Shown here: in pieces, positions 8,268-57,841 of the stretch
Numbering within the stretch: position 1 is the stretch's first letter
Layout of the letters: each line of letters starts with the position of its first letter
Source of the DNA: Gemmatimonadota bacterium
GTDB taxonomy: Bacteria > Gemmatimonadota > Gemmatimonadetes > Palauibacterales > KS3-K002
Assembly (NCBI GenBank): GCA_020344215.1
Contig: CP070815.1
Coordinates: 2,490,358-2,554,357, forward strand
DNA: 64,000 nt
Reading direction: 5' to 3'
Translations under genes and position numbers: made by a program
The notes under the pieces: generated by a model
What the model was told of the DNA's origin: nothing
What the model saw: the letters and a program-made list of their open reading frames with translations, nothing else
Databases searched by the model: none

Positions 8268-10691
8268 CTACTCATACTTGAGCGCCACGAGCGGTTCGAG
8301 CCGCGCGGCTCGCCGCGCCGGGATGTAGGCGGCCAGTGCGGCGGCCGCGATGAGTACTGCAGCGACTCCCAGGTAGACCGCCGGGTCGACCGTGCTGATG
8401 CCGTAGAGCAGGCTGCTGATCAAGCGCGTCAGCGCCAGCGAGGCTACGAGCCCGATGAGCACGCCGACGCTGACCAGCTTGAGCCCCCACCGCATACCCA
8501 ACCGCAACACCTCGACCCTTTCGGCGCCGAGCGCCAGGCGGATTCCCATCTCGTGCACGCGTCGGTTCAGCGAGTACGACATGACCCCATAGATCCCGAC
8601 CACGGCCAACACGACGGCGACGGCGGCGAAGAGAGCGAGCAATTGCACGGTGAACCGGCGCTGGCGTATCGAGTCGGAGAGGACTCCTTCCATCGTGTTC
8701 ACTTCGTAAACCGGCAGGTCGGGATCAACGGCGCCGACCTCGGCACGCACCGCGTCCAAAAGACTCGCGGGCTCGACCTCGGCACGCACGACGAGGGCCA
8801 TGAACGGCCACGAGTCCCAAGCGAAGGGAGCGTAAACCTCGGGTCGCGGTGGCCGGTCGTAGCCGAAGTGGCGGACATCCCCGACCACACCCACGATCTC
8901 CAGCGGGGTCTCGCCGAACAGAATCCGCCGCCCGACCGGATCGTCGCCGGGCCAGTGCCGGCGGGCGAACGTCTCGTTGATCACCGCGACGCCGCGGCCA
9001 TCGGCACCGTCCCGTTCGTCAAAAGTGCGCCCTTGCCGCAGCGGGATCCCCATCGTACGGAAATACGCAGGCGTGATCACCTGGTACTCGGTGGCGAGAT
9101 CGTCATCGGGATCCGCGGTCTGACCCTCGACGCCGTACCTCAAGGTCGCGGCCGTCCCGCTGAACGGTAGGGCCAAGACCATCGCCGCCGAGCTCACACC
9201 GGGCAGGCGGTCGACGCGCGCGATGACGTCCCGAACGAACGCCGCCTGCCGCTCCTCCTCTGCATATCGCGTGTCGGGCAGACTGAGTTGCATCACCAGG
9301 AGGTTCTGCGGCCGGAAACCGGGATCGACATCCTGCAAGCGAAGCAGGCTCTTCAGCAGGAGCCCCGTCCCGCAGAGCAGCACGAGAGCGAGCGCGACCT
9401 CGGCGACCACGAGCGACTCGCTCAACCGACGCCTCTGCCGCCCCTGGCTCGCAGCGCGGCCACCTTCCTTCAAGGTCTCGTGCAGATCGGGCTTGGATGC
9501 CTGCAACGCCGGGAGCAGCCCGAAGGCTCCACCTGTCAACAGCGAGACGAGCAGCGTGAAGAGGAGAGCGGTGCCGTGCACACCGATCTCGGAGAGCCGC
9601 GGGACGTCGCCGGGAGCTGCGCGCACGAGCGCTTCCACTCCCCAGACGGCGAGCAGGAGACCCAGGCCGCCGCCCAGCAAGCCGAGCACCAGGCTCTCGG
9701 TGAGCAGCTGGCGCAGCAGTCGCGTCCGCCTCGCACCCAGCGCGGCCCGCAGGGCAATCTCACGTTCGCGCGCGGTCGCGCGTGCCAGTAGAAGATTCGC
9801 GACGTTGGCGCAGGCGATCAGCAGCACGAACGCTACCGCCGCGAGCAGCAGTATCAGCGCGGGCCGAACATCACCGACCAGCTCGTCGTGGAGTGGCGTA
9901 GCCAGCAAAGGCTCGACATCGTCGCCACCTCCGACTTCGGCGAGCCGTACGGCGAGCAGGTCCATCTCCGCCCGCACCTGAGCGAGAGTCACCCCTTCGG
10001 CAACGCGTCCAACGACGGTGAAGTAGCCAAGGTCGCGCACGACGCTCAGATCCTCGCCCAGATCGATCGGCGGCTCCGGCACACCGTATCGATACGAGCG
10101 TACCCACAGTTCAGCGGTCTCCGGGTACTTGAACGCGGCGGGTGCGACGCCGACCACCGTGTGCGGCTCACCGTTTAGGTTCAGCACAGTGCCGACGACG
10201 GCGGGGTCTCCCCCGAACCGGCTCTGCCAGGCGCGGTAGCTGAGCACGACGTTCCGGGCTCCCGCCGCAGCGTCGCCCTCCGGGTAAAAGAAGCGACCGA
10301 GGACAGGCTCGACCCCCAACACACGGAAGAAGTTGGGTGAGACGCTCTGGCCGCGGATCCGCTCAGGTGTACCGAGACCGGTAAGGCTGAAGTTGGTGCC
10401 CCTGTGCCCGGCGAACTCATCCACGGTCTGACTCCATTCGCGCAGGTCCAGGTAGTCCGCCGGAGAGAATGAGGAGAAGTACTCGCCGTGCGCCTCCGCC
10501 TGCTGCAGAACGACAAGTTGCGCCGGGTTCGCGTACGGTAGCGACCGCAAGACGACCGAATAAAGAACGCTGAAGATGGCTGTGTTGCCACCTATCCCCA
10601 GCGCCAGGCAGAGCAGCGCGGCGACGGTAAGCGTCGGGCTTTTCGCGAGCGTGCGAACCGCGAAGCGGAGGTCCTGGCCGATTCCGTGCAT
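8268..10691 (-). CDS. ADOP-family ABC permease: an N-terminal MacB-like periplasmic domain plus two FtsX permease repeats
   Basis: The N-terminus reads MHGIGQDLRFAVRTLAKSPTLTVAALLCLALGIGGNTAIFSV. Length is 807 aa with duplicated 4-TM blocks. Confidence 0.85.
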   Translation of the reverse strand: MHGIGQDLRFAVRTLAKSPTLTVAALLCLALGIGGNTAIFSVLYSVVLRSLPYANPAQLVVLQQAEAHGEYFSSFSPADYLDLREWSQTVDEFAGHRGTNFSLTGLGTPERIRGQSVSPNFFRVLGVEPVLGRFFYPEGDAAAGARNVVLSYRAWQSRFGGDPAVVGTVLNLNGEPHTVVGVAPAAFKYPETAELWVRSYRYGVPEPPIDLGEDLSVVRDLGYFTVVGRVAEGVTLAQVRAEMDLLAVRLAEVGGGDDVEPLLATPLHDELVGDVRPALILLLAAVAFVLLIACANVANLLLARATAREREIALRAALGARRTRLLRQLLTESLVLGLLGGGLGLLLAVWGVEALVRAAPGDVPRLSEIGVHGTALLFTLLVSLLTGGAFGLLPALQASKPDLHETLKEGGRAASQGRQRRRLSESLVVAEVALALVLLCGTGLLLKSLLRLQDVDPGFRPQNLLVMQLSLPDTRYAEEERQAAFVRDVIARVDRLPGVSSAAMVLALPFSGTAATLRYGVEGQTADPDDDLATEYQVITPAYFRTMGIPLRQGRTFDERDGADGRGVAVINETFARRHWPGDDPVGRRILFGETPLEIVGVVGDVRHFGYDRPPRPEVYAPFAWDSWPFMALVVRAEVEPASLLDAVRAEVGAVDPDLPVYEVNTMEGVLSDSIRQRRFTVQLLALFAAVAVVLAVVGIYGVMSYSLNRRVHEMGIRLALGAERVEVLRLGMRWGLKLVSVGVLIGLVASLALTRLISSLLYGISTVDPAVYLGVAAVLIAAAALAAYIPARRAARLEPLVALKYE

Positions 10692-14757: not shown

Positions 14758-14815
14758 CACGCTCGACGAGGATGAGTACGAGTACGAGGCTGACGATGAC
14801 GGAGACGGGGATCGA
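14740..14815. repeat. Copy R1, a degenerate member of the hexamer-repeat hairpin family (contains GAGTACGAGTACGAGG)
   Basis: It shares an ACGAGT hexamer tract with the copies at 24.85, 28.4, 49.4 and 57.6 kb. The arms ctcgtcatc and gatgacgga are partly complementary. Confidence 0.4.
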
Positions 14816-15554: not shown

Positions 15555-16502
15555 ATGCTCTGGCTTCTGCTGATTCCCGGCGTTCTTCTGCTAACGGCTC
15601 TCACGCTATTCACGCTGTGGATGGTCGGCGAGCGCGGGCACCTGATGCTCCCATCGACCCGGGCGCAAATGATGAGGTCCGGTGGCTCGTCGGGATCCGG
15701 CGGCAACGGGCATCGGGCTGGGTTGGCCAACGCTCTGCACGGCTACGTCTATGGGCGCTGGCCCTACCAGTACATCAAGATCGCGATCCGCTGGCTGCTC
15801 CCGTACATGTCACCGGAGCAGAAGCGCTGGTGGGCCGATCGCTATCACGGCAAGGTCCTGCCAACGGAGCTGGCGCGCCGGGTCATCAACCTGGACCACG
15901 ACATCAAGCGGACCGACCTCGAGCGGATCATCCCCTACCCGATGGCGCGGGACATCGTGCTCAAGGGCCCGCCCGGCGTGGTCCTGCTCGATTGCCCCTG
16001 TCGCGATGCGCGAGAGGACCCCTGCCAACCGACCGACGTCTGCATGATCGTCGGTAACGGCAGCTTCGTGCTCGAGCACCACCCAAACCGATCGCGGCGT
16101 ATCACGCAGCAGGAGGCGCTCGATCTGCTGCAGGCGGAGCACGAGCGCGGGCACATCCACACGGCCTACTTCAAGGACGCGATGGACAATCGCTTTTACG
16201 CGATCTGCAACTGCTGCTCCTGCTGCTGCGGCGGGCTCGAGGCGATGAGGAGGGGCGTCCCGATGGTCGCATCGTCGGGTTACGTGGCCCAGGTGGACGA
16301 GGAAGCGTGCATAGCCTGCGGAGACTGCGAGGTCGCGTGTCCCTTCGGCGCGCTAACGCTGAACGATACCGCCGAGGTGAGCTGGGAGAAGTGCATGGGC
16401 TGCGGTGTTTGCGAGGGTCAGTGTGAGACGGAGGCGATGCACCTGGTGCTCGACGAGCGCAAGGGCGTGCCGATGGATGTGCAGGCGATTGGAGTACGGT
16501 AG
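15555..16502 (+). CDS. Membrane-anchored 4Fe-4S ferredoxin-domain protein with an extra poly-Cys cluster
   Basis: GAGGAG lies 8 nt upstream of the ATG. An N-terminal TM helix is present. Two ferredoxin motifs CIACGDCEVACP and CMGCGVCEGQC are present, plus an unusual CNCCSCCCGG cluster. The ORF track places the start at 15513. Confidence 0.6.
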   Translation: MLWLLLIPGVLLLTALTLFTLWMVGERGHLMLPSTRAQMMRSGGSSGSGGNGHRAGLANALHGYVYGRWPYQYIKIAIRWLLPYMSPEQKRWWADRYHGKVLPTELARRVINLDHDIKRTDLERIIPYPMARDIVLKGPPGVVLLDCPCRDAREDPCQPTDVCMIVGNGSFVLEHHPNRSRRITQQEALDLLQAEHERGHIHTAYFKDAMDNRFYAICNCCSCCCGGLEAMRRGVPMVASSGYVAQVDEEACIACGDCEVACPFGALTLNDTAEVSWEKCMGCGVCEGQCETEAMHLVLDERKGVPMDVQAIGVR

Positions 16503-16618
16503 TCAGTGGTCGGTAATCAGTAGTCAGTAGTCAGTAGTCAGTAGTCAGTGACTGCCGACGACCGACGACCGATGACCGACCACCGACGACCGACTACCGA
16601 TTACTGATTACCGATTGC
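16500..16618. repeat. Inverted pair of heptamer tandem arrays: (AGTAGTC)n followed by (GACGACC/GATTACC)n, forming an imperfect hairpin of about 120 nt
   Basis: Period-7 tandem units are visible. The left block gtcggtaatcagta is nearly the reverse complement of the right block taccgattactgat. Confidence 0.6.
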
Positions 16619-16646
16619 TTCCACCCGCAAACCGAGCGCTCGAACC

Positions 16647-22583: not shown

Positions 22584-22628
22584 GCACCCCCCGGCCAGAG
22601 CACGTTGGCCGGGGGGTGCTGGGTTTTT
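22584..22628 (+). terminator. Rho-independent terminator: a perfect 14-bp stem (gcaccccccggcca/tggccggggggtgc) followed by a T5 run
   Basis: It lies 49 nt after the stop of the outer-membrane protein gene and is followed by gggttttt. Confidence 0.75.
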
Positions 22629-22731: not shown

Positions 22732-24843
22732 ATGAGGACCGACACCACTGCAGCCGCTACCTTGGTGCTGATACTCGCCGCGGCACCCGCCGCTGCTCAG
22801 CGACCCGTCGGCGTCCCGGCTGACAGCGTCTTTCTCTACAAGCTCGAGGGGATCTCGGTCACCGTCTCACGCTCAGCCCTGGAGGTGGAGCGGCTTCCTT
22901 ACGCCGTCGGCGTGCTGGGCGCGGAGGACGTCCAGGGGCTCGAGGCCACGATCTCGCTGGACGAGTCGCTGGCCCAGATTCCTGGCGTGTTCGTCGACAA
23001 CCGGTACAACTTCGCCCTCGGGGCCCGCATCTCGATCCGCGGATTCGGCGCCCGCACCCAGTTCGGTGTGCGCGGCGTCCGCATCATCCAGGACGGGATC
23101 CCGCTGACGCTACCCGACGGCCAAGCGCAGACAGGCAACCTCGACCTGGGCGCCGCCGGTCGCATCGAGGTGATCCGCGGTCCCGCCTCGGCACTGTACG
23201 GCAACGCCAGCGGCGGCGTGATCAGCGTGCAGACCGAGTCGGCACCGGCGGCGGCGCTGCGGCCCGAGTTCCGGGCACTGGCCGGCGGCTACGGCAACGG
23301 CCGCTCATACCAGAAGTACGACTTGAAGCTCGGAGGGCAGCAGGGGCGCTTCGACTACCTCGGTCACCTCGCCTACTTCGACAGCGACGGCTTCCGCACG
23401 CACAGCGAGGCGACGTACACGCTGCTCAACGCGCGCCTCCGCTACGAGCTGGACAGGAACGCCGACCTCACCCTGGTGGTCAACTACGCGGACGCGCCGC
23501 AGGCCGAGAATCCGAGCACGCTGACCGACTCTGTCGCCAGGGTGAAGCCGGACACGGTCCGCGACATAGTGCTACCGCCGGAGGAATGCCCGCCGGACCC
23601 CGGGTTCGGTGGCTGCCAGAACCTGGGCGAGGAGTTCCGACAGGGGCAGGCCGGGGTCACCTACCGCCGCAGGTTCGGGGGCACTCACGAGATCTCGCTC
23701 ATGGGCTACGGCCTGTTCCGTGAGCTGGAGAACCGGATCCCCTTCCGGCTCATCGAGCTCGACCGGCTCGGGGGCGGAGCGCGGGCGGAGTACCGCCTCA
23801 CCCCGGCGGAGGGTCGCCTGGCCCGCTTGACCGCCGGGCTCGACCTCGACAGCCAGTGGGACGACCGAGTCGAGCTCGTACGCGACGACGAGACGGTCGG
23901 GCCGGCGGCGCTCGACCAGGATGAGAGGGTCACGGCGCTTGGGCTCTTCGCGCACGGCGGCCTGGTTCTCGCCTCCGGGCTCGAGCTGACGCTCAGCCTC
24001 CGCTACGATCGTGTCCGCTTCCAGGTGGATGACCGCCTGGTCACGGGCGACGATCCCGACGACTCCGGAACGCGCAACATGGACCAATGGAGCCCGATGG
24101 TGGGGCTGAGCTACAGCTACGCAACCTGGCTCAACCTCTACGGCAACGTTGGGCGATCGTTCCAGACGCCCACGACCACCGAGCTCACCGACACGCTCGG
24201 TGGTTTCAACGCGGAGTTGCAGCCCGAGCGCGCCACGAACTACGAAATCGGTGTGAAAGGCACTGCCGGCGGACGGGCGAGCTACAGCCTCGCCCTATTC
24301 CACACCGATGTGGAGGACCAGCTCATCGGTTCCGCGGCGGCCGGGACCGAGCGTGTCCTTTTCGAGAACGCCGGCTCGAGCGTGCACGAAGGGATCGAGG
24401 TGGGGATCTCAGCGCTCGTCGCCCCCAGCTTGACTGCGACGGCCGCTTATACGTACTCCGACTTCAAGTTCGAGGAGTTCGTCACCGAGGCCGGTGATTT
24501 CAGCCGGAACCGGGTCCCGGGTGTCCCGCCGCACCGGCTGCACGCGCGTCTCGGCTACGCAGGCGGCCGGGGACTCTCCGGTTCGCTGCAACTGACCGCG
24601 GCCGACGACCACTTCGTCGACAACGCGAGCGAGAGCCGCAACGACGGCTACACCGTCGTCGACCTGCGTCTCGGATTCACCGCGCACACCCCCGGCTTCG
24701 AGATCGCACCCTTCCTGGGGCTCAACAACCTCTTCGACGAGCGCTACAACTCATCGGTCGTCGTCAACGCGATCGCCGGTCGCTACTACGAACCGGCTCC
24801 GGGGCGGAACCTCTACGTTGGCGTCCGCCTGAGCACCCGGTAG
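22732..24843 (+). CDS. TonB-dependent outer-membrane receptor
   Basis: A plug-domain motif (DESLAQIPGVFVDNRYNFALGARISIRGFGAR) is present. Length is 703 aa with beta-barrel periodicity. Confidence 0.85.
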   Translation: MRTDTTAAATLVLILAAAPAAAQRPVGVPADSVFLYKLEGISVTVSRSALEVERLPYAVGVLGAEDVQGLEATISLDESLAQIPGVFVDNRYNFALGARISIRGFGARTQFGVRGVRIIQDGIPLTLPDGQAQTGNLDLGAAGRIEVIRGPASALYGNASGGVISVQTESAPAAALRPEFRALAGGYGNGRSYQKYDLKLGGQQGRFDYLGHLAYFDSDGFRTHSEATYTLLNARLRYELDRNADLTLVVNYADAPQAENPSTLTDSVARVKPDTVRDIVLPPEECPPDPGFGGCQNLGEEFRQGQAGVTYRRRFGGTHEISLMGYGLFRELENRIPFRLIELDRLGGGARAEYRLTPAEGRLARLTAGLDLDSQWDDRVELVRDDETVGPAALDQDERVTALGLFAHGGLVLASGLELTLSLRYDRVRFQVDDRLVTGDDPDDSGTRNMDQWSPMVGLSYSYATWLNLYGNVGRSFQTPTTTELTDTLGGFNAELQPERATNYEIGVKGTAGGRASYSLALFHTDVEDQLIGSAAAGTERVLFENAGSSVHEGIEVGISALVAPSLTATAAYTYSDFKFEEFVTEAGDFSRNRVPGVPPHRLHARLGYAGGRGLSGSLQLTAADDHFVDNASESRNDGYTVVDLRLGFTAHTPGFEIAPFLGLNNLFDERYNSSVVVNAIAGRYYEPAPGRNLYVGVRLSTR

Positions 24844-24980
24844 CTCCCGCTCCTTCCTCCCGCTCGTACTCCCGCTCGTAATCGTGATCGTGATCCTACT
24901 CGTACTCGCGCTCCCGTATTTCCGAGTACGAGTACGAGGACGAGTACGAGCAGGAGGAGGAGGGGGAGGAGGAGGGGGGG
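24844..24980. repeat. Copy R2 of the hexamer-repeat hairpin family: CTCCTCCCGCTCGTACTC...CGTAATCGTGATCGTGATC...loop...GAGTACGAGTACGAGGACGAGTACGAGCAGGAGGAGG
   Basis: This is an imperfect inverted repeat of about 130 nt. Its arms are period-6 units of CGTNAT and ACGAGN. It begins at the TonB-dependent receptor stop codon. Confidence 0.65.
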
Positions 24981-28401: not shown

Positions 28402-28404
28402 TTG

Positions 28405-28466
28405 CCCCTCCTCCTGCTCCTGCTCGTATACGATCACGATTACGAGCAAGAGCAGGAGGAGAGAGG
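28405..28466. repeat. Copy R3 of the hexamer-repeat hairpin family; it fills the convergent moeA/etfA intergenic gap exactly
   Basis: cccctcctcctgctcctgctcgtatacgatc pairs with gatcacgattacgagcaagagcaggaggagagagg in a hairpin centred on GATC. Confidence 0.65.
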
Positions 28467-36830: not shown

Positions 36831-36934
36831 TGCGAATGGCGAATGTAGAATGTCGAACGCCGAATAACGAACCGAGGTCTTGTAAAGATACTCCTTCTAC
36901 ATTCGGTATTCGGCGTTCTACATTCGATATTCGG
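36831..36934. repeat. Compound inverted repeat of 17-mer units (CCGAATAYCGAATGTAG-like), two per arm, around an AT-rich 24-nt spacer
   Basis: The left block cgaatgtagaatgtcgaacgccgaata and the right block tattcggcgttctacattcg are reverse complements. The unit ctacattcgRtattcgg is repeated directly. Confidence 0.55.
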
Positions 36935-36960: not shown

Positions 36961-38037
36961 TCAAATAGCCTTGACCTCGACGCCCAATCCGTGCGGATAT
37001 ATCACGGCGCGCAGCGAGTCGTCGTGCGTCTTCGCCATCCGCAGCGCTTCGCCGACCCCGTCCAGCCCGAAGCGGTGTGTGATGAGGTCCTCGACCTCGA
37101 ACTCGCCGCTGGCCAGCAGGTCGAGCGCGTCGCGCGTCTCGATCGGTCCAGCCGAGTAGCTGTGGGTAATCGTTACTTCTTTGAAGTACAGGTCGTGCGG
37201 CCGGTAGGCGACCGTTGCCTCCGGGGGTGTCGGAGTGTAGACGAGGACGACACCACCCGGCGCGGCGTGGGCCAGGCCGTGTTCGATCGCATCGACCGCG
37301 CCGGGCATGACGATCACTTTCTCCGCACCCCAGCCGCCGGTCGCCTCCGACATCTTCTCATCGAAGTCGGCGGCGCCCGGGTCGAGGGCGACGTCGGCTC
37401 CTATACCCTCGGCGTACTCGCGGCGAATCGCCACCGGATCGGTAACCACGATGGGCTCGGCCCCGAGGTAGCGAGCCAGGCGAACGTTCAAGAGCCCCAT
37501 CGGCCCGGCACCGATCACCCAGACGCTGACCCCCGGCAGCAGGTCTATCTTGCCGAAGGCACGCAGGCTGCAGGCGAGTGGCTCGATGAACGCCCCTGCC
37601 TCATCCGAGACCTCGTCAGGCAGCTTGAGCACGTCGACGCGCACGATCTCCGCGGGCACCCGCACGAACTCGGCGAAGCCACCGGGATCGAGCGACGTCT
37701 CACGGAAGCGCCGGCACGACGTGTACAGTCCGCGCTGGCAGAGCCGGCAGGTCAGGCAGGGCACGTGATGGTGGAAGAAGACGCGATCCCCGACGTCCAG
37801 GTCCCCCACTTCGGGCGTCACCTCGTGCACGATCCCCACCGGCTCGTGACCGAGGACGACCGGCACCTTGCGGCTTACGTACCAGTCCATGGCGTCGCTT
37901 GAGCAGACACCGCAAACGCTCACCTGCACCCGGATGTCGCCCGGCTCGAGCTGAGGCAGCGGCATCTCCTCCACCCGCACGTCTTCGAGTGAGTAGGCGC
38001 GCGCCGCGTTCATCATCGCTACGCTCTTCTTGTTCAT
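36961..38037 (-). CDS. Zinc-dependent medium-chain alcohol/polyol dehydrogenase
   Basis: The catalytic-zinc ligands (CGVCSSD ... GHEPVG) and the structural-zinc Cys cluster (CLTCRLCQRGLYTSC) are present, along with a GxGxxG motif. Confidence 0.8.
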   Translation of the reverse strand: MNKKSVAMMNAARAYSLEDVRVEEMPLPQLEPGDIRVQVSVCGVCSSDAMDWYVSRKVPVVLGHEPVGIVHEVTPEVGDLDVGDRVFFHHHVPCLTCRLCQRGLYTSCRRFRETSLDPGGFAEFVRVPAEIVRVDVLKLPDEVSDEAGAFIEPLACSLRAFGKIDLLPGVSVWVIGAGPMGLLNVRLARYLGAEPIVVTDPVAIRREYAEGIGADVALDPGAADFDEKMSEATGGWGAEKVIVMPGAVDAIEHGLAHAAPGGVVLVYTPTPPEATVAYRPHDLYFKEVTITHSYSAGPIETRDALDLLASGEFEVEDLITHRFGLDGVGEALRMAKTHDDSLRAVIYPHGLGVEVKAI

Positions 38038-39080
38038 AGTGCGATGGCCACCTTGAGCGCCTCGCGCCGGCGCATCAGTTCGAGCGCCTCAGGGAGTCCC
38101 GCCAGCGGCATCTCGTGCGTAACGAGTGGATCGAGCGTCAGCGTCCCGTTGCAGATGAGGTCCCAAGCGCGCCGCACGCTGTCCGGTGTGTAGTGGAAGC
38201 CGCCCTTCAGGCTGATCTCATCGTAGTGGACCCGTTCGGCATCGAAGCTCACGGCAGCGCCTCTCTCGCAACCGCCGAAGAAGAGCACTTCCCCTCCACG
38301 GCGGGCCAGTGCGACCGCGTCCTCCCACGCTTCTGGACGCCCGACGCACTCCACCACGCTGTCAGCACCCAGTCCGTCGCTCAGCTCCTTTACCACCTCA
38401 AGAGGGTCGGTCCCATTCGCGTCGACGGCCACGTCCGCACCGAGCTGCCGGGCTACCGCCAACCTCCGGCTGTGGCGGCCGATCACGGCTATGCGGCCGG
38501 CGCCACGTACCCGCGCCAGTTGCACGAAGAGCAGCGCCATCGGCCCATCACCGAGGAACACCAGCGTCCGGTCGCCGGCAAGCTTCAACAGACCCGCCCC
38601 ATGCACGACACAGGCGAGCGGCTCTAGAAAGGCGGCGCGGACATCGGAGACGGAGTCGGGGATGCGGAAGGTGTTCCGGTTAACCACCTGACGGGGCAAC
38701 AGTACGTACTCCCCGTAGGCGCCGAGCGCCATATGCTCGAACAGGTGAAGGCAAAGGTTCTCGGCGCCCCGCAGGCAATACGCGCAATCGCCGCACGGCG
38801 CCGTCGGCGTGCCGACGATCCGGTCACCGGCCGCAAACCCGAGGACCCCGTCGCCCAGCGCCTCCACCCTGCCGGCCCATTCGTGACCCAGAGGGCCGGG
38901 AACCTTGAGGCGTGCGTGGCCGCGGTCGGCCGTCTTGAGATCGGTGCCGCAGGTCAGGGCGACGGAGACGCGCGCCAGCACTTCGCCGTCGGCCGGCTCG
39001 GGAGTGTCGACGGACTCCAGCCGTAGCTCTCCGGGACGAACGAGTCGCCAGACGCGCATCGCGGTCGGTCGGTTCGTCAT
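38034..39080 (-). CDS. Zinc-dependent medium-chain alcohol dehydrogenase
   Basis: The zinc ligands (CGTD ... GHEWAG) and a CGDCAYCLRGAENLC cluster are present. The gene overlaps the downstream ADH by 4 nt. The start was set at an internal Met. Confidence 0.75.
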   Translation of the reverse strand: MTNRPTAMRVWRLVRPGELRLESVDTPEPADGEVLARVSVALTCGTDLKTADRGHARLKVPGPLGHEWAGRVEALGDGVLGFAAGDRIVGTPTAPCGDCAYCLRGAENLCLHLFEHMALGAYGEYVLLPRQVVNRNTFRIPDSVSDVRAAFLEPLACVVHGAGLLKLAGDRTLVFLGDGPMALLFVQLARVRGAGRIAVIGRHSRRLAVARQLGADVAVDANGTDPLEVVKELSDGLGADSVVECVGRPEAWEDAVALARRGGEVLFFGGCERGAAVSFDAERVHYDEISLKGGFHYTPDSVRRAWDLICNGTLTLDPLVTHEMPLAGLPEALELMRRREALKVAIAL

Positions 39081-39125
39081 GAGGGTAGAACCTACAGAGT
39101 GACGGCCGCGGCTGGAAGGACCGGG

Positions 39126-39282
39126 GTCGCTGAGGGGGGATGGTCGCCGAGGAGGCCGTCTCGCTCCATGTCGCGTGGGGCGGGGTCTGAGGGAGTCGCC
39201 TCGCTCCATGTCGCGCCACCCGTTGCCGACAACCGAGGTCTGGCCGTGGCGCTCCAAATTACGCTCTACGACTCCCTCAGAC
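39126..39282. repeat. Compound repeat upstream of the ADH operon: a direct repeat of ...CTGAGGG..TCGCC TCGCTCCATGTCGCG (x2) plus a perfect 14-nt inverted repeat (gtctgagggagtcg / cgactccctcagac)
   Basis: Seen directly in the sequence. It creates the spurious MERH...MERG N-terminal extension of the ORF-track entry. Confidence 0.5.
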
Positions 39283-39359
39283 CCCTATTCACTCTCGCAC
39301 GGACTGTTGTATCCCTCACTTAGCGAGACGATCCCCACTGCGACCGCCGCACCCGGGAC

Positions 39360-49323: not shown

Positions 49324-49368
49324 GCTATACTGGTGTATAGTATAGCGCGGCGCCGTCACCCCTGTCAA
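49324..49368 (-). promoter_or_regulatory. csoR promoter TTGACA-N18-TATACT with an inverted repeat GCTATACT-N7-AGTATAGC over the -10 element and transcription start region (candidate CsoR operator)
   Basis: The reverse complement reads TTGACAggggtgacggcgccgcgcTATACTatacaccagtatagcagaggaggcccgATG. The palindrome spans 49324-49346. Confidence 0.55.
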
Positions 49369-49380
49369 TCCCTCCCTCTG

Positions 49381-49480
49381 CTCATCGCCATCACCGTCCT
49401 CGTCGTCATCGGCACCCCTGTCGTGCATCGAGCACGATTACGATTACGAGCACGATTACGAGGATGAACGCGATTAGAGG
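49381..49480. repeat. Copy R4, a degenerate member of the hexamer-repeat hairpin family (CGAGCACGATTACGATTACGAGCACGATTACGAGG), lying between the cytochrome c 3' end and the csoR promoter
   Basis: Period-6 CGATTA/CGAGCA units are present. The left arm cctcgtcgtcatcg is only partly complementary. Confidence 0.5.
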
Positions 49481-49617
49481 GTGCTATTGGGCGGAGGGTT
49501 GGCGGGTGGAATCACGGGAATTCGGGGGAGCCGGAAGGCCGGGGGGCACTTCTCCAGTTCCCGACCTCGCTGAATCCTCGAACCCCCGAATCGACCTTCC
49601 AGGATTGCCGCGCTATC

Positions 49618-56898: not shown

Positions 56899-56965
56899 AA
56901 TCAAAAAGGGGGGATTCCTGGAGTTTCTTGGGAATTCTCGAACGCCGATTCGAGAATCCCCAAAA
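56899..56965. terminator. Two adjacent hairpins (ggaatc-aaaaagggggg-gattcc and gggaattctcgaa-cgccg-attcgagaatcccc) between convergent rho and the downstream phosphoribosyltransferase gene
   Basis: Seen directly in the sequence, with A/T runs flanking the hairpins. Confidence 0.5.
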
Positions 56966-56969
56966 AACT

Positions 56970-57578
56970 TCAACATTGGTCGTCGAGCCCTTCGTACTCC
57001 GGGTTGACAACGAGTCGCCCGGACTCCTCGTCCACCACTTCTCTATCCCACGGAAAGACCACCGTTCCCTCTGCGGCCAGCGCGTAGTAGTCGGGCTCGT
57101 ACCCACCGACGTGGACTAGTGAGGTGGCGGTGCGCACCTCCGCCGGGTCGACATCGCGTACGGCGGCGAGTGCCAGGCGCAGCGTGTCGCCGGTTTCACA
57201 GATCTCGTCGACCAGCAGGACCCGCCGCCCCGCCAGCTGCGGGGGCGCGGCCGAGAGGATTTCCGGGCGCGAGCGCCTGCCGGCACCCTCCTCGCGCCGG
57301 GTGATCTTGATAGCGTAGAACTCCTTGCCCAACATGGCGGCGATCACCGCGCCGGGTATTACGCCCGCCGCCGCGATCCCGACCACGGCCTCAGGGTCGT
57401 AGTCGCGCGCCACCCGCAGCGCCAGGGCACGGCAGAGTTCACCGAATAGCTCCCAGGAGAGCTCGAACGCTCCCTCCTCCTCGCGGATCTCGGGCAGGAT
57501 CGGCTCGTCTACGATGGCGCACCCCCTGATCGCTGAGAGAATCGCATAGCGGATAGACGTACTAAATAATCCCCCCAC
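56970..57578 (-). CDS. Type I phosphoribosyltransferase (purine PRTase-like)
   Basis: The PRPP-binding motif RRVLLVDEICETGDT is present. The GTG start is uncertain. Confidence 0.6.
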   Translation of the reverse strand: MGGLFSTSIRYAILSAIRGCAIVDEPILPEIREEEGAFELSWELFGELCRALALRVARDYDPEAVVGIAAAGVIPGAVIAAMLGKEFYAIKITRREEGAGRRSRPEILSAAPPQLAGRRVLLVDEICETGDTLRLALAAVRDVDPAEVRTATSLVHVGGYEPDYYALAAEGTVVFPWDREVVDEESGRLVVNPEYEGLDDQC

Positions 57579-57616
57579 CCAGAAACCGGCAACCGGCCTG
57601 AGCTCAGCCCTTCCAT

Positions 57617-57731
57617 CTCCTGCTCGTGCTCGTAAGCGTAAGCGTGATCGTATTCGTAATCGTAATCGACCACGCGCCGGGCAGCGATTGTGACTGCGAT
57701 TACGATCGCGATTACGAGCAGGAGCAGGAGG
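57617..57731. repeat. Copy R5, the best-preserved member of the hexamer-repeat hairpin family: ctcctgctcgtgctcgtaagcgtaagcgtgatcgtattcgtaatcgtaatcg - loop - cgattacgatcgcgattacgagcaggagcaggagg
   Basis: A 35-50-nt inverted repeat made of CGTAAT-type hexamers around a 28-nt loop, lying in the divergent region upstream of gyrA. Confidence 0.7.
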
Positions 57732-57841
57732 AAGAGGTGAGCACGATCGACGCTTGAGGGCGAAGGACTCGGCACTTAAGTTGAGGATGTCCTTTTCGGT
57801 GTATCTTCGCGCCGACCTTCTGGTGGAAGAGGAGTGGGGTT

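Follow-up and report, generated by a model that had tools for sequence, protein, structure and literature searches.

Tandem repeats with units of 6–9 nt are common in some bacterial genomes. The GGGAATC heptamer repeats of Xanthomonas include 70–75 convergent array pairs per genome; they are mostly intergenic and transcribed, and while their length differs between species, their type, be it a single array or an inverted pair, stays the same (Rehm et al. 2015; PMC4692102). TAACTGA heptamer repeats are common to Beggiatoaceae, Cyanobacteria, and Bacteroidetes, with no known mechanism of transfer; almost all of them are direct (1 inverted in 170) and located just upstream of start codons, in one orientation (MacGregor 2015; PMC4679880). 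According to the account of Mrazek et al. (2007) given in that paper, long simple-sequence repeats with units of 5–11 nt occur sporadically, with heptamers being dominant. Repetitive extragenic palindromes (REP), finally, are 20–40 bp long, have a defined sequence with an unpaired tag, GTAG or CGTC, and frequently go together with a REP-associated tyrosine transposase (RAYT) (Di Nocera et al. 2013; PMC3733652). The present analysis deals with a window of 64 kb (the whole stretch of DNA that was analysed) from a metagenome-assembled genome (MAG) of Gemmatimonadota, in which a preliminary description had noted five intergenic loci made of tandem hexamers, R1 to R5. All five are present where they had been placed, and a real, non-coding, dispersed family of intergenic palindromes is confirmed. 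These loci, together with two heptamer-armed hairpins that had been left out of the copy list, are best, if tentatively, regarded as hairpin-forming long simple-sequence repeats, namely inverted pairs of short-unit arrays in intergenic DNA, which are REP-like in placement, being neither REP nor miniature inverted-repeat transposable elements (MITE).

For the window, the G+C content of which is 61–72% and the GyrA and TonB receptor of which share 100% identity with proteins of a Gemmatimonadota MAG, a gene map was derived from third-position GC and Pfam matches. Hairpins were searched for along every anti-diagonal, and single strands were folded, with z values referring to shuffled sequences. 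The repeat loci are as follows.

57617–57731, R5: hexamer-armed hairpin (arms 57617–57662 and 57685–57730, loop of about 22 nt) in the gap between two divergent genes, that of a phosphoribosyltransferase on the minus strand and gyrA on the plus strand.
24844–24980, R2: hexamer-armed hairpin (arms 24855–24908 and 24923–24975) in a plus-strand gap, immediately 3' of the stop codon of the TonB-receptor gene (24841–24843) and 5' of the plus-strand Yip1 gene.
28403–28466, R3: near-perfect hexamer-armed hairpin (arms 28408–28428 and 28441–28461, 20 of 21 positions paired) in the gap between the convergent genes moeA and etfA.
49381–49480, R4: decayed copy, the right arm of which is a hexamer run (49429–49467; CACGAT/TACGAT/TACGAG), the left arm being degenerate, in the gap of two minus-strand genes, csoR-like and cytochrome c.
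14766–14815, R1: one-armed stub without hairpin (GAGTAC twice plus acidic-looking hexamers), in the leader of a minus-strand BNR-repeat gene, just upstream of its probable true start.
16485–16639: heptamer hairpin with arms (GTAGTCA)n and (CGACGAC/ACCGATT)n, both GTNNTCR variants (z −7.4 and −8.7), between the plus-strand Fer4 and UDG genes, with the Fer4 stop codon inside the first unit.
36833–36933: heptamer hairpin with units (CGAATGN/GAATGTN)n (z −7.7), between two minus-strand genes, alcohol-dehydrogenase-like (ADH) and cupin-like.
49515–49600: decayed inverted pair of GGGNATC-type heptamers, GGGAATTCGGGGG...CCCCCGAATC, just 3' of the cytochrome c gene; its fold is not significant.

In the whole window, the hairpins with arms of 21 nt or more number exactly five, namely R2, R3, R5, and the two heptamer-armed ones, and all of them have tandem-repeat arms; the five longest hairpins of the 64 kb are all repeat-armed. 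These five are inverted pairs able to form a stem-loop, which R1 and R4 are not. Tandem Repeats Finder assigns a period of 6 or 7 to every arm, and separate periodicity scores amount to 0.7–0.94. The folding energy is −71.7 kcal/mol for R5 (z −7.9), −89.1 kcal/mol for R2 (z −8.2), and −51.3 kcal/mol for R3 (z −8.7); R4 folds only marginally better than shuffled sequences (z −2.2 to −2.7), and R1 no better (z about 0). The single hairpin architecture with common ends that had been ascribed to all five loci thus applies to R2, R3, and R5, the folding of which is strong, and does not extend to the degenerate R4 and the one-armed R1.

The ends that R2, R3, and R5 have in common read CTCC(T/C)GCTCG...CGAGCAGGAG. 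Within these copies the units follow a gradient, being GC-richer at the base (CTCCTG, CTCGTG) and AT-richer toward the loop (CTCGTA, ATCGTA, ATCGTG), and the second arm mirrors the unit order of the first; in R3, the right arm is the reverse complement of the left arm except for one base. With up to two mismatches, CTCGTAATCGTRATCGT has 8 matches in the window versus 0.00 expected from shuffles, and with up to one mismatch, ACGAKYACGAKNACGA has 20 versus 0.04; all of these matches fall inside R1–R5. The hexamer copies of the window, 60 to 137 nt long, have only their low-complexity ends in common, the loops being unrelated and the order of the units varying. Directly after R2, a remnant of another heptamer family, GGCTACTGGCTAGCGG, is found.

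The proposed placement at gene boundaries holds generally. R2 and R3 abut stop codons, R2 starting at that of the TonB-receptor gene and R3 exactly filling the moeA/etfA gap, as first described, while R5 lies in a divergent gap and not at a 3' end. A coding repeat was rejected because R2–R5 and the heptamer hairpins map between genes on the third-position GC map and because the two arms would encode unrelated peptides; the low-complexity "peptides" are, as had been suspected, artefacts of translating the arms. Likewise, a CRISPR array was rejected for R1–R5, in agreement with the preliminary description, because the units are contiguous and there are no spacers between them. No match at the gathering threshold of Rfam was obtained across the window, and no transposase, including the IS200-like RAYT, was found among the 20 window open reading frames (ORFs) scanned against Pfam.

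The window hairpins are of the same kind as the inverted GGGAATC pairs of Xanthomonas, albeit of a different family; the kind had been thought undescribed, whereas such inverted pairs of short-unit repeats are on record (PMC4692102). As with the GGGAATC/GGGNATC repeats of Xanthomonas and Nostoc, short-unit tandem arrays are located in intergenic DNA, often as convergent pairs able to form a stem-loop, and unit number varies between related species with the arrangement being kept. A decayed GGGAATTC pair of the GGGNATC type is itself present in the window, at 49515–49600, with clearer copies in two related genomes (L001, 1899–1958, and L002, 1913–1950; fetched loci are numbered with the prefix L). 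In contrast to that family, the window hexamers CTCGTA, ATCGTA, and CTCGTG are devoid of G-runs and, consequently, of quadruplex potential. Furthermore, the hexamer array is polar, its two or three types of unit following each other in a fixed sequence. Its carriers are Gemmatimonadota, the Planctomycetes-Verrucomicrobia-Chlamydiae (PVC) group, Acidobacteriota, and similar phyla instead of Xanthomonas and cyanobacteria, and, by a crude count, it is not depleted between divergent genes. With the TAACTGA repeats and other long simple-sequence repeats, the arrays share short units in non-coding DNA, a sporadic spread across phyla, and the suspicion of horizontal transfer, and the window heptamers GTAGTCA/TTACTGA resemble TAACTGA; unlike the TAACTGA repeats, the hexamer arrays are mostly inverted pairs and show no orientation bias.

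With REP and bacterial interspersed mosaic elements (BIME), the hairpins have in common that they are extragenic palindromes, dispersed among gene boundaries and numbering several per 64 kb, which are present or absent at orthologous sites and for which roles in mRNA stability, termination, and supercoiling are proposed. They differ from REP in being 60–140 nt long (60–137 nt for the hexamer copies), in consisting of tandem units, in their variable length, and in lacking a consistent tag: GTAG/CGTC is absent from R3 and R5, and the GTAG before R2 is the stop codon of the TonB-receptor gene. The separation from classical REP made in the preliminary description is therefore retained. A further likeness is that to the intervening sequences (IVS) of 23S rRNA, since hexamer arms in other phyla form a long stem around an ORF of the family PF05635; the window copies, however, have no ORF and lie outside rRNA. 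String searches of the literature returned no description of the hexamer arrays, apart from one incidental 14-mer match in a paper on a Paraburkholderia prophage.

Orthologous sites were compared in relatives with 76–88% GyrA identity or 78–79% TonB-receptor identity, in which gene order is kept. Upstream of gyrA, a hairpin is present in the window and in four of the seven relatives examined (L001, L002/L003, and L004). Its flanks are conserved, whereas the copies vary in the length of their arms and in the order of their units, and each of them folds (z −3.3 to −7.9). The equally related L238 has only ...CCTTCCGTCATCGC at this site, and nothing was found there in L237 and L239. In the moeA/etfA gap, L205 and L206 have stubs of 23–24 nt, AGACTCCTACTCCTGC... 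and CTACTCCTGCTCGTAGG, which carry the left-arm motif of R3, CTCCTGCTCGTA, without a right arm. The TonB/Yip1 gap of the same two genomes holds a hairpin of a different family, made of (CGGTAGC)n heptamers, and it is the outer remnant of this family, GGCTACTGGCTAGCGG, that the window keeps beside R2. In L205, the first GTAGCCG unit includes the stop codon of the TonB-receptor gene. After the R2 site, a TATATTCGG block is conserved in the window, L205, and L206 alike. Between the Fer4 and UDG genes, a (GAACATC/GGACATC)n hairpin in L205 stands against the (GTAGTCA)n hairpin of the window, and the corresponding gap of L206 is 39 nt long and repeat-free, with a sequence, GTCTAGTGG, that the GTAGTCA array of the window resembles. 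In the cupin/ADH gap, L205 has a related GAACRTY hairpin. At the site corresponding to R4, between the csoR-like and cytochrome c genes, a small inverted repeat, CTCCTGCT...AGCAGGAG, that does not fold significantly (z −1.2 to −1.5) is present in L239. Immediately 3' of the cytochrome c gene, heptamer hairpins of the GGGATTC type occur in L001 and L002; their window version is decayed.

From these comparisons it is clear that copies change by whole units; both upstream of gyrA (window, L001, L002, and L004) and in the cupin/ADH gap (window and L205), unit number varies with the arrangement being kept. The two arms homogenise separately and drift to different "dialects" of one unit. Copies decay, and the hairpin-less sites of L205, L206, and L238 keep stubs of 12–24 nt of the hexamer motif, which are taken to indicate that copies are lost by deletion. 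Among related genomes, the repeat family found in a given gene gap can differ.

Some observations on these neighbourhoods may be added. A metagenome scan based on EtfA was uninformative on the R3 site, because the closest loci (69–75% identity) have other genes downstream. In one unrelated locus fetched in this way (L131, 7100–7215), the stop codon of etfA is immediately followed by about seven tandem copies of a 15-nt unit, GGGGCTTCAACCACC. In the complete Gemmatimonadota genome CP070812.1 (L207, 10001–16800), the TonB-receptor orthologue is truncated to 538 aa, and TPR genes together with an island carrying phage integrase and helix-turn-helix genes replace the Yip1–moeA operon. Near R4, the csoR-like (Trns_repr_metal) gene has a palindrome, ATACTGG(T/G)GTATAGTAT, closely upstream of it, which is conserved between the window (49326–49345), L001 (about 1705–1725), and L239 (about 1035–1055); it is probably the operator of the csoR-like repressor itself.

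No strand-specific RNA signal was seen. Of the ten co-directional cases, five have the better and five the worse fold on the sense strand, both heptamer hairpins gain 14–18 kcal/mol when folded as the antisense strand of the flanking genes, the better-folding strand varies among the R5 orthologues, and array orientation is unbiased. An asymmetry of G-U pairs on the sense strand, which would be a sign of selection at the RNA level, was looked for in these hairpins and not found. No T-tract follows R2, R3, or R5, and a consensus terminator scan finds nothing at R2; the interpretation of these hairpins as intrinsic terminators was rejected because T-tracts are absent. Ordinary short GC-rich hairpins with T-tails do occur in the window, for example at 22584–22619 and 56919–56972. 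The latter lies where the rho and phosphoribosyltransferase genes converge; with arms of 24 nt and a T/A run on either side, it has the appearance of a common bidirectional terminator. In L001, this gap contains a perfect hairpin of 21 bp (9074–9119), the sequence of which is unrelated.

The hairpin upstream of gyrA is flanked by conserved blocks, at 57745–57790 and 57565–57605 in the window, with orthologues in L001, L002, L004, L237, and L238. The block facing gyrA reads GCTTGAGG...CTTAAGTTGA, and the opposite one TAAATAA...CCGGCAACCG. Apparently, these blocks represent two divergent promoters, with R5 upstream of both; this putative placement is based on the conservation of the blocks, and a consensus promoter scan around R5 gave no match.

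The hexamer family, which had been supposed to be specific to this lineage, is not confined to it. A scan of species-representative genomes for CTCGTAATCGTRATCGT returned at least 120 matches; the counts given below are those among the matches listed. About 77 loci are true period-6 arrays, the remainder being chance matches in coding sequence. The array (CTCGTG)n-(CGTAAT)n-CGA is spread over ten or more phyla, the carriers of true arrays being Verrucomicrobiota, Planctomycetota, Acidobacteriota, Kiritimatiellia and Victivallales, Riflebacteria, and Sumerlaeota, as well as Hydrogenedentota, Nitrospiraceae (Nitrospirota), one Melioribacteraceae genome, and another Gemmatimonadota MAG. A partner arm is found within 150 nt, as in the window copies, for 21 arrays and at 150–700 nt for 8, and 45 are one-armed by the criterion used. 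The array is strictly polar, with CTCGTG runs located 5' of CGTAAT units in 22 cases and in none the other way round (e.g., L023, L033, L084, L086, L090, and L101), and 30 arrays end in AATCGA. By crude gene calls, the gaps holding arrays are co-directional in 37 cases, convergent in 13, and divergent in 12, and the two array orientations are represented 13 and 14 times. Almost none of these arrays occurred in 80 control loci fetched via EtfA. Viral contigs gave 29 matches, mostly chance coding ones, with about five true arrays, and no clear phage vector emerged from them. In the MAG "bin.378," the array copies have unique flanks in common. In an Acidobacteriota MAG (AnMBR.bin219; L087, 5262–5690), an intergenic mosaic of 6–8 nt tandem arrays in both orientations was observed, the units of which are GGACATC, CGTAAT-type, AGGCTCG, TCTCCCG, and ATTCACCC, in blocks that are not strictly nested; L020 (1–3400) has a mosaic as well, and the GGACATC unit of L087 also forms a hairpin in the Gemmatimonadota relative L205.

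In some of these genomes, the hexamer arms enclose an ORF, namely in L124 (1800–2300), L044 (7118–7864), and L122 (1430–1890), and in L081 (4105–4609) an ORF directly follows a short hairpin. The ORF of L124 has matches to PF05635 (E 3.7e-17) and to TIGR02436, which stand for the "23S rRNA intervening-sequence" protein, a four-helix bundle; that of L122 has no Pfam match and resembles the family over its N-terminus only. L082 (150–260) is an internal-deletion derivative of the L124-type element, in which the ORF was lost between two CCGATT repeats, and the ends of both are conserved terminal inverted repeats, GCGCATCTCAGATTTTTC. With two queries, tblastn found no PF05635 ORF in the window or in L001–L004, and a jackhmmer search of all ORFs of at least 60 aa in the window and L001–L207 gave PF05635-like matches only in loci of the hexamer scan. 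All PF05635-like ORFs in the fetched DNA adjoin hexamer runs, with none in the other fetched loci. Among the matches listed, such an ORF adjoins about 8 of the approximately 77 arrays across phyla, an association that is biased because the sample was selected by the hexamer itself.

To account for the hairpins as long simple-sequence repeats, replication slippage would add and remove units, the opposite arm would be made or refreshed by intrastrand fold-back (template-switch) copying, for which the mirror-image arms of R3 speak, and hairpin-stimulated deletion would remove copies; the elements would persist since intergenic gaps tolerate them. Local seeding of arrays, as suggested by the TonB-receptor stop codon within a GTAGCCG unit in L205 and by the likeness of the GTAGTCA array to GTCTAGTGG of L206, is counted in favour of this account. 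Several points weigh against it. Slippage and template switching are themselves read from patterns in the repeats, and slippage alone does not predict one polar array in at least ten phyla, with the unit order of 22 to 0 and 30 arrays ending in AATCGA among the matches listed. Between genomes, conservation is higher in the outer left arm of R5 than in the spacer next to it, which hints at constraint, and different families in one gap fit repeated insertion as well as local origin. Elsewhere, moreover, the array sits in multi-copy elements with conserved unique ends, sometimes flanking a PF05635 ORF, which together with the deletion derivative L082 of L124 points to mobility. The hairpins may accordingly be viewed as non-autonomous mobile elements, i.e., ORF-less derivatives of PF05635-encoding hairpin elements that would spread in trans and between phyla, as REP do in relation to RAYT. 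The recurrence of the one polar array in many phyla, the ORFs enclosed by the arms in L124, L044, and L122 or following the hairpin in L081, the conserved termini of L082, the common flanks in "bin.378," the other family at the R2 site in L205 and L206, the empty 16.5 kb heptamer site in L206, and the vicinity of every PF05635-like ORF in the fetched DNA to hexamer runs all fit such an origin. It is weakened by the lack of PF05635 ORFs in the window and L001–L004 and their confinement to hexamer-scan loci in the L001–L207 search, by the lack of a transposase among the 20 window ORFs scanned, by the about 8 of about 77 arrays with such an ORF in a hexamer-selected sample, and by the stubs retained at "empty" sites; to our knowledge, the four-helix-bundle protein has no known transposase chemistry. 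Neither was a target-site duplication seen by eye at R2, R3, or R5, nor a cleanly emptied site in the relatives, and the window copies share no more than low-complexity ends at lengths of 60 to 137 nt. With no fixed length, no unique core, and stubs where a site should be empty, the MITE-like character proposed in the preliminary description has to be given up for the window. Derivation from mobile elements is thus deemed unlikely, but it is kept under consideration because polarity and cross-phylum recurrence, the discrete multi-copy elements, and the PF05635 association are left unexplained by the favoured account. Its most specific form, in which the polar array (CTCGTG)n-(CGTAAT)n-CGA would be the cis element of a widespread undescribed system with the PF05635 four-helix-bundle (Avd-like, "23S IVS") protein as partner, ORF-bearing hairpins being autonomous and ORF-less ones miniature derivatives spread or processed in trans, is considered very unlikely.

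Selection for a function in RNA is weighted similarly to mobility, because position persists, and it too is held to be unlikely. Here, the hairpins would be cis-acting RNA elements, located between cistrons or at 3' ends, which terminate, insulate, or protect the upstream mRNA, and any hairpin of sufficient length would serve. This would fit the persistence of a hairpin of some family at the TonB/Yip1 gap in three genomes and two families, at the cytochrome c 3' end in L001 and L002 with a decayed remnant in the window, in the cupin/ADH gap of two genomes, and upstream of gyrA in four of seven relatives. It would also fit the stop codons abutted by R2 and R3, and the TATATTCGG block following R2 in three genomes, as would be expected if a new transcription unit started there. 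REP and the Xanthomonas repeats are, furthermore, mostly transcribed and downstream of ORFs (PMC3733652; PMC4692102). On the other hand, no T-tract follows any copy, whereas T-tailed terminators exist at 22584–22619 and 56919–56972; the sense strand has no folding advantage, the heptamer hairpins being better by 14–18 kcal/mol in antisense; R5 lies between divergent genes, apparently upstream of both promoter-like blocks; pairing decays freely (R4, R1, and the middle of the L002 copy); and some relatives have no hairpin at the same site. On the simple-sequence-repeat account, transcribed copies would still fold into long imperfect RNA hairpins, which, like REP, may act as barriers to 3' exonucleases, as targets of double-strand RNases, or as weak terminators; such effects are regarded as a by-product and not as the reason for the hairpins' existence. 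An action at the level of DNA, either as cruciform-prone inverted repeats or as arrays of sites for nucleoid or regulatory proteins, for example as a supercoil buffer between divergent promoters at gyrA, is less likely than either mobility or an RNA role, and is judged highly improbable. It would agree with the lack of strand preference and with the conservation of R5 between divergent genes, one of which is gyrA, and regularly spaced identical hexamers would suit cooperative protein binding. A GC-rich base and an AT-rich apex, as found here, favour opening at the centre and thus extrusion, but the arms are only 73–83% complementary at the DNA level, with loops of 10–25 nt, and such imperfect arms and loops disfavour it. 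In addition, L238 manages without a gyrA copy, copy length varies widely, and we know of no candidate protein that would bind the hexamer array.

Apart from the repeat loci, the window contains an inverted repeat, GGGGTCTGAGGGAGTCG/CGACTCCCTCAGACCCC, with perfectly matching arms of 17 bp that are 70 nt apart (39182–39285), at the 5' end of the minus-strand gene 38034–39257.

To what is known of short-unit repeats, the hexamer family adds a strict internal order of units, pairing into long hairpins, and recurrence across distant phyla. The comparisons of orthologous sites illustrate in concrete terms the growth, drift, and disappearance of hairpins of this kind. For annotation, it is of relevance that the arrays produce spurious ORF extensions and low-complexity "proteins." A partnership with the PF05635 protein, if true, would account for the recurrence of one ordered array in ten or more phyla; if the link were causal, a function would be at hand for a very large orphan protein family, along with a mechanism of spread between phyla.

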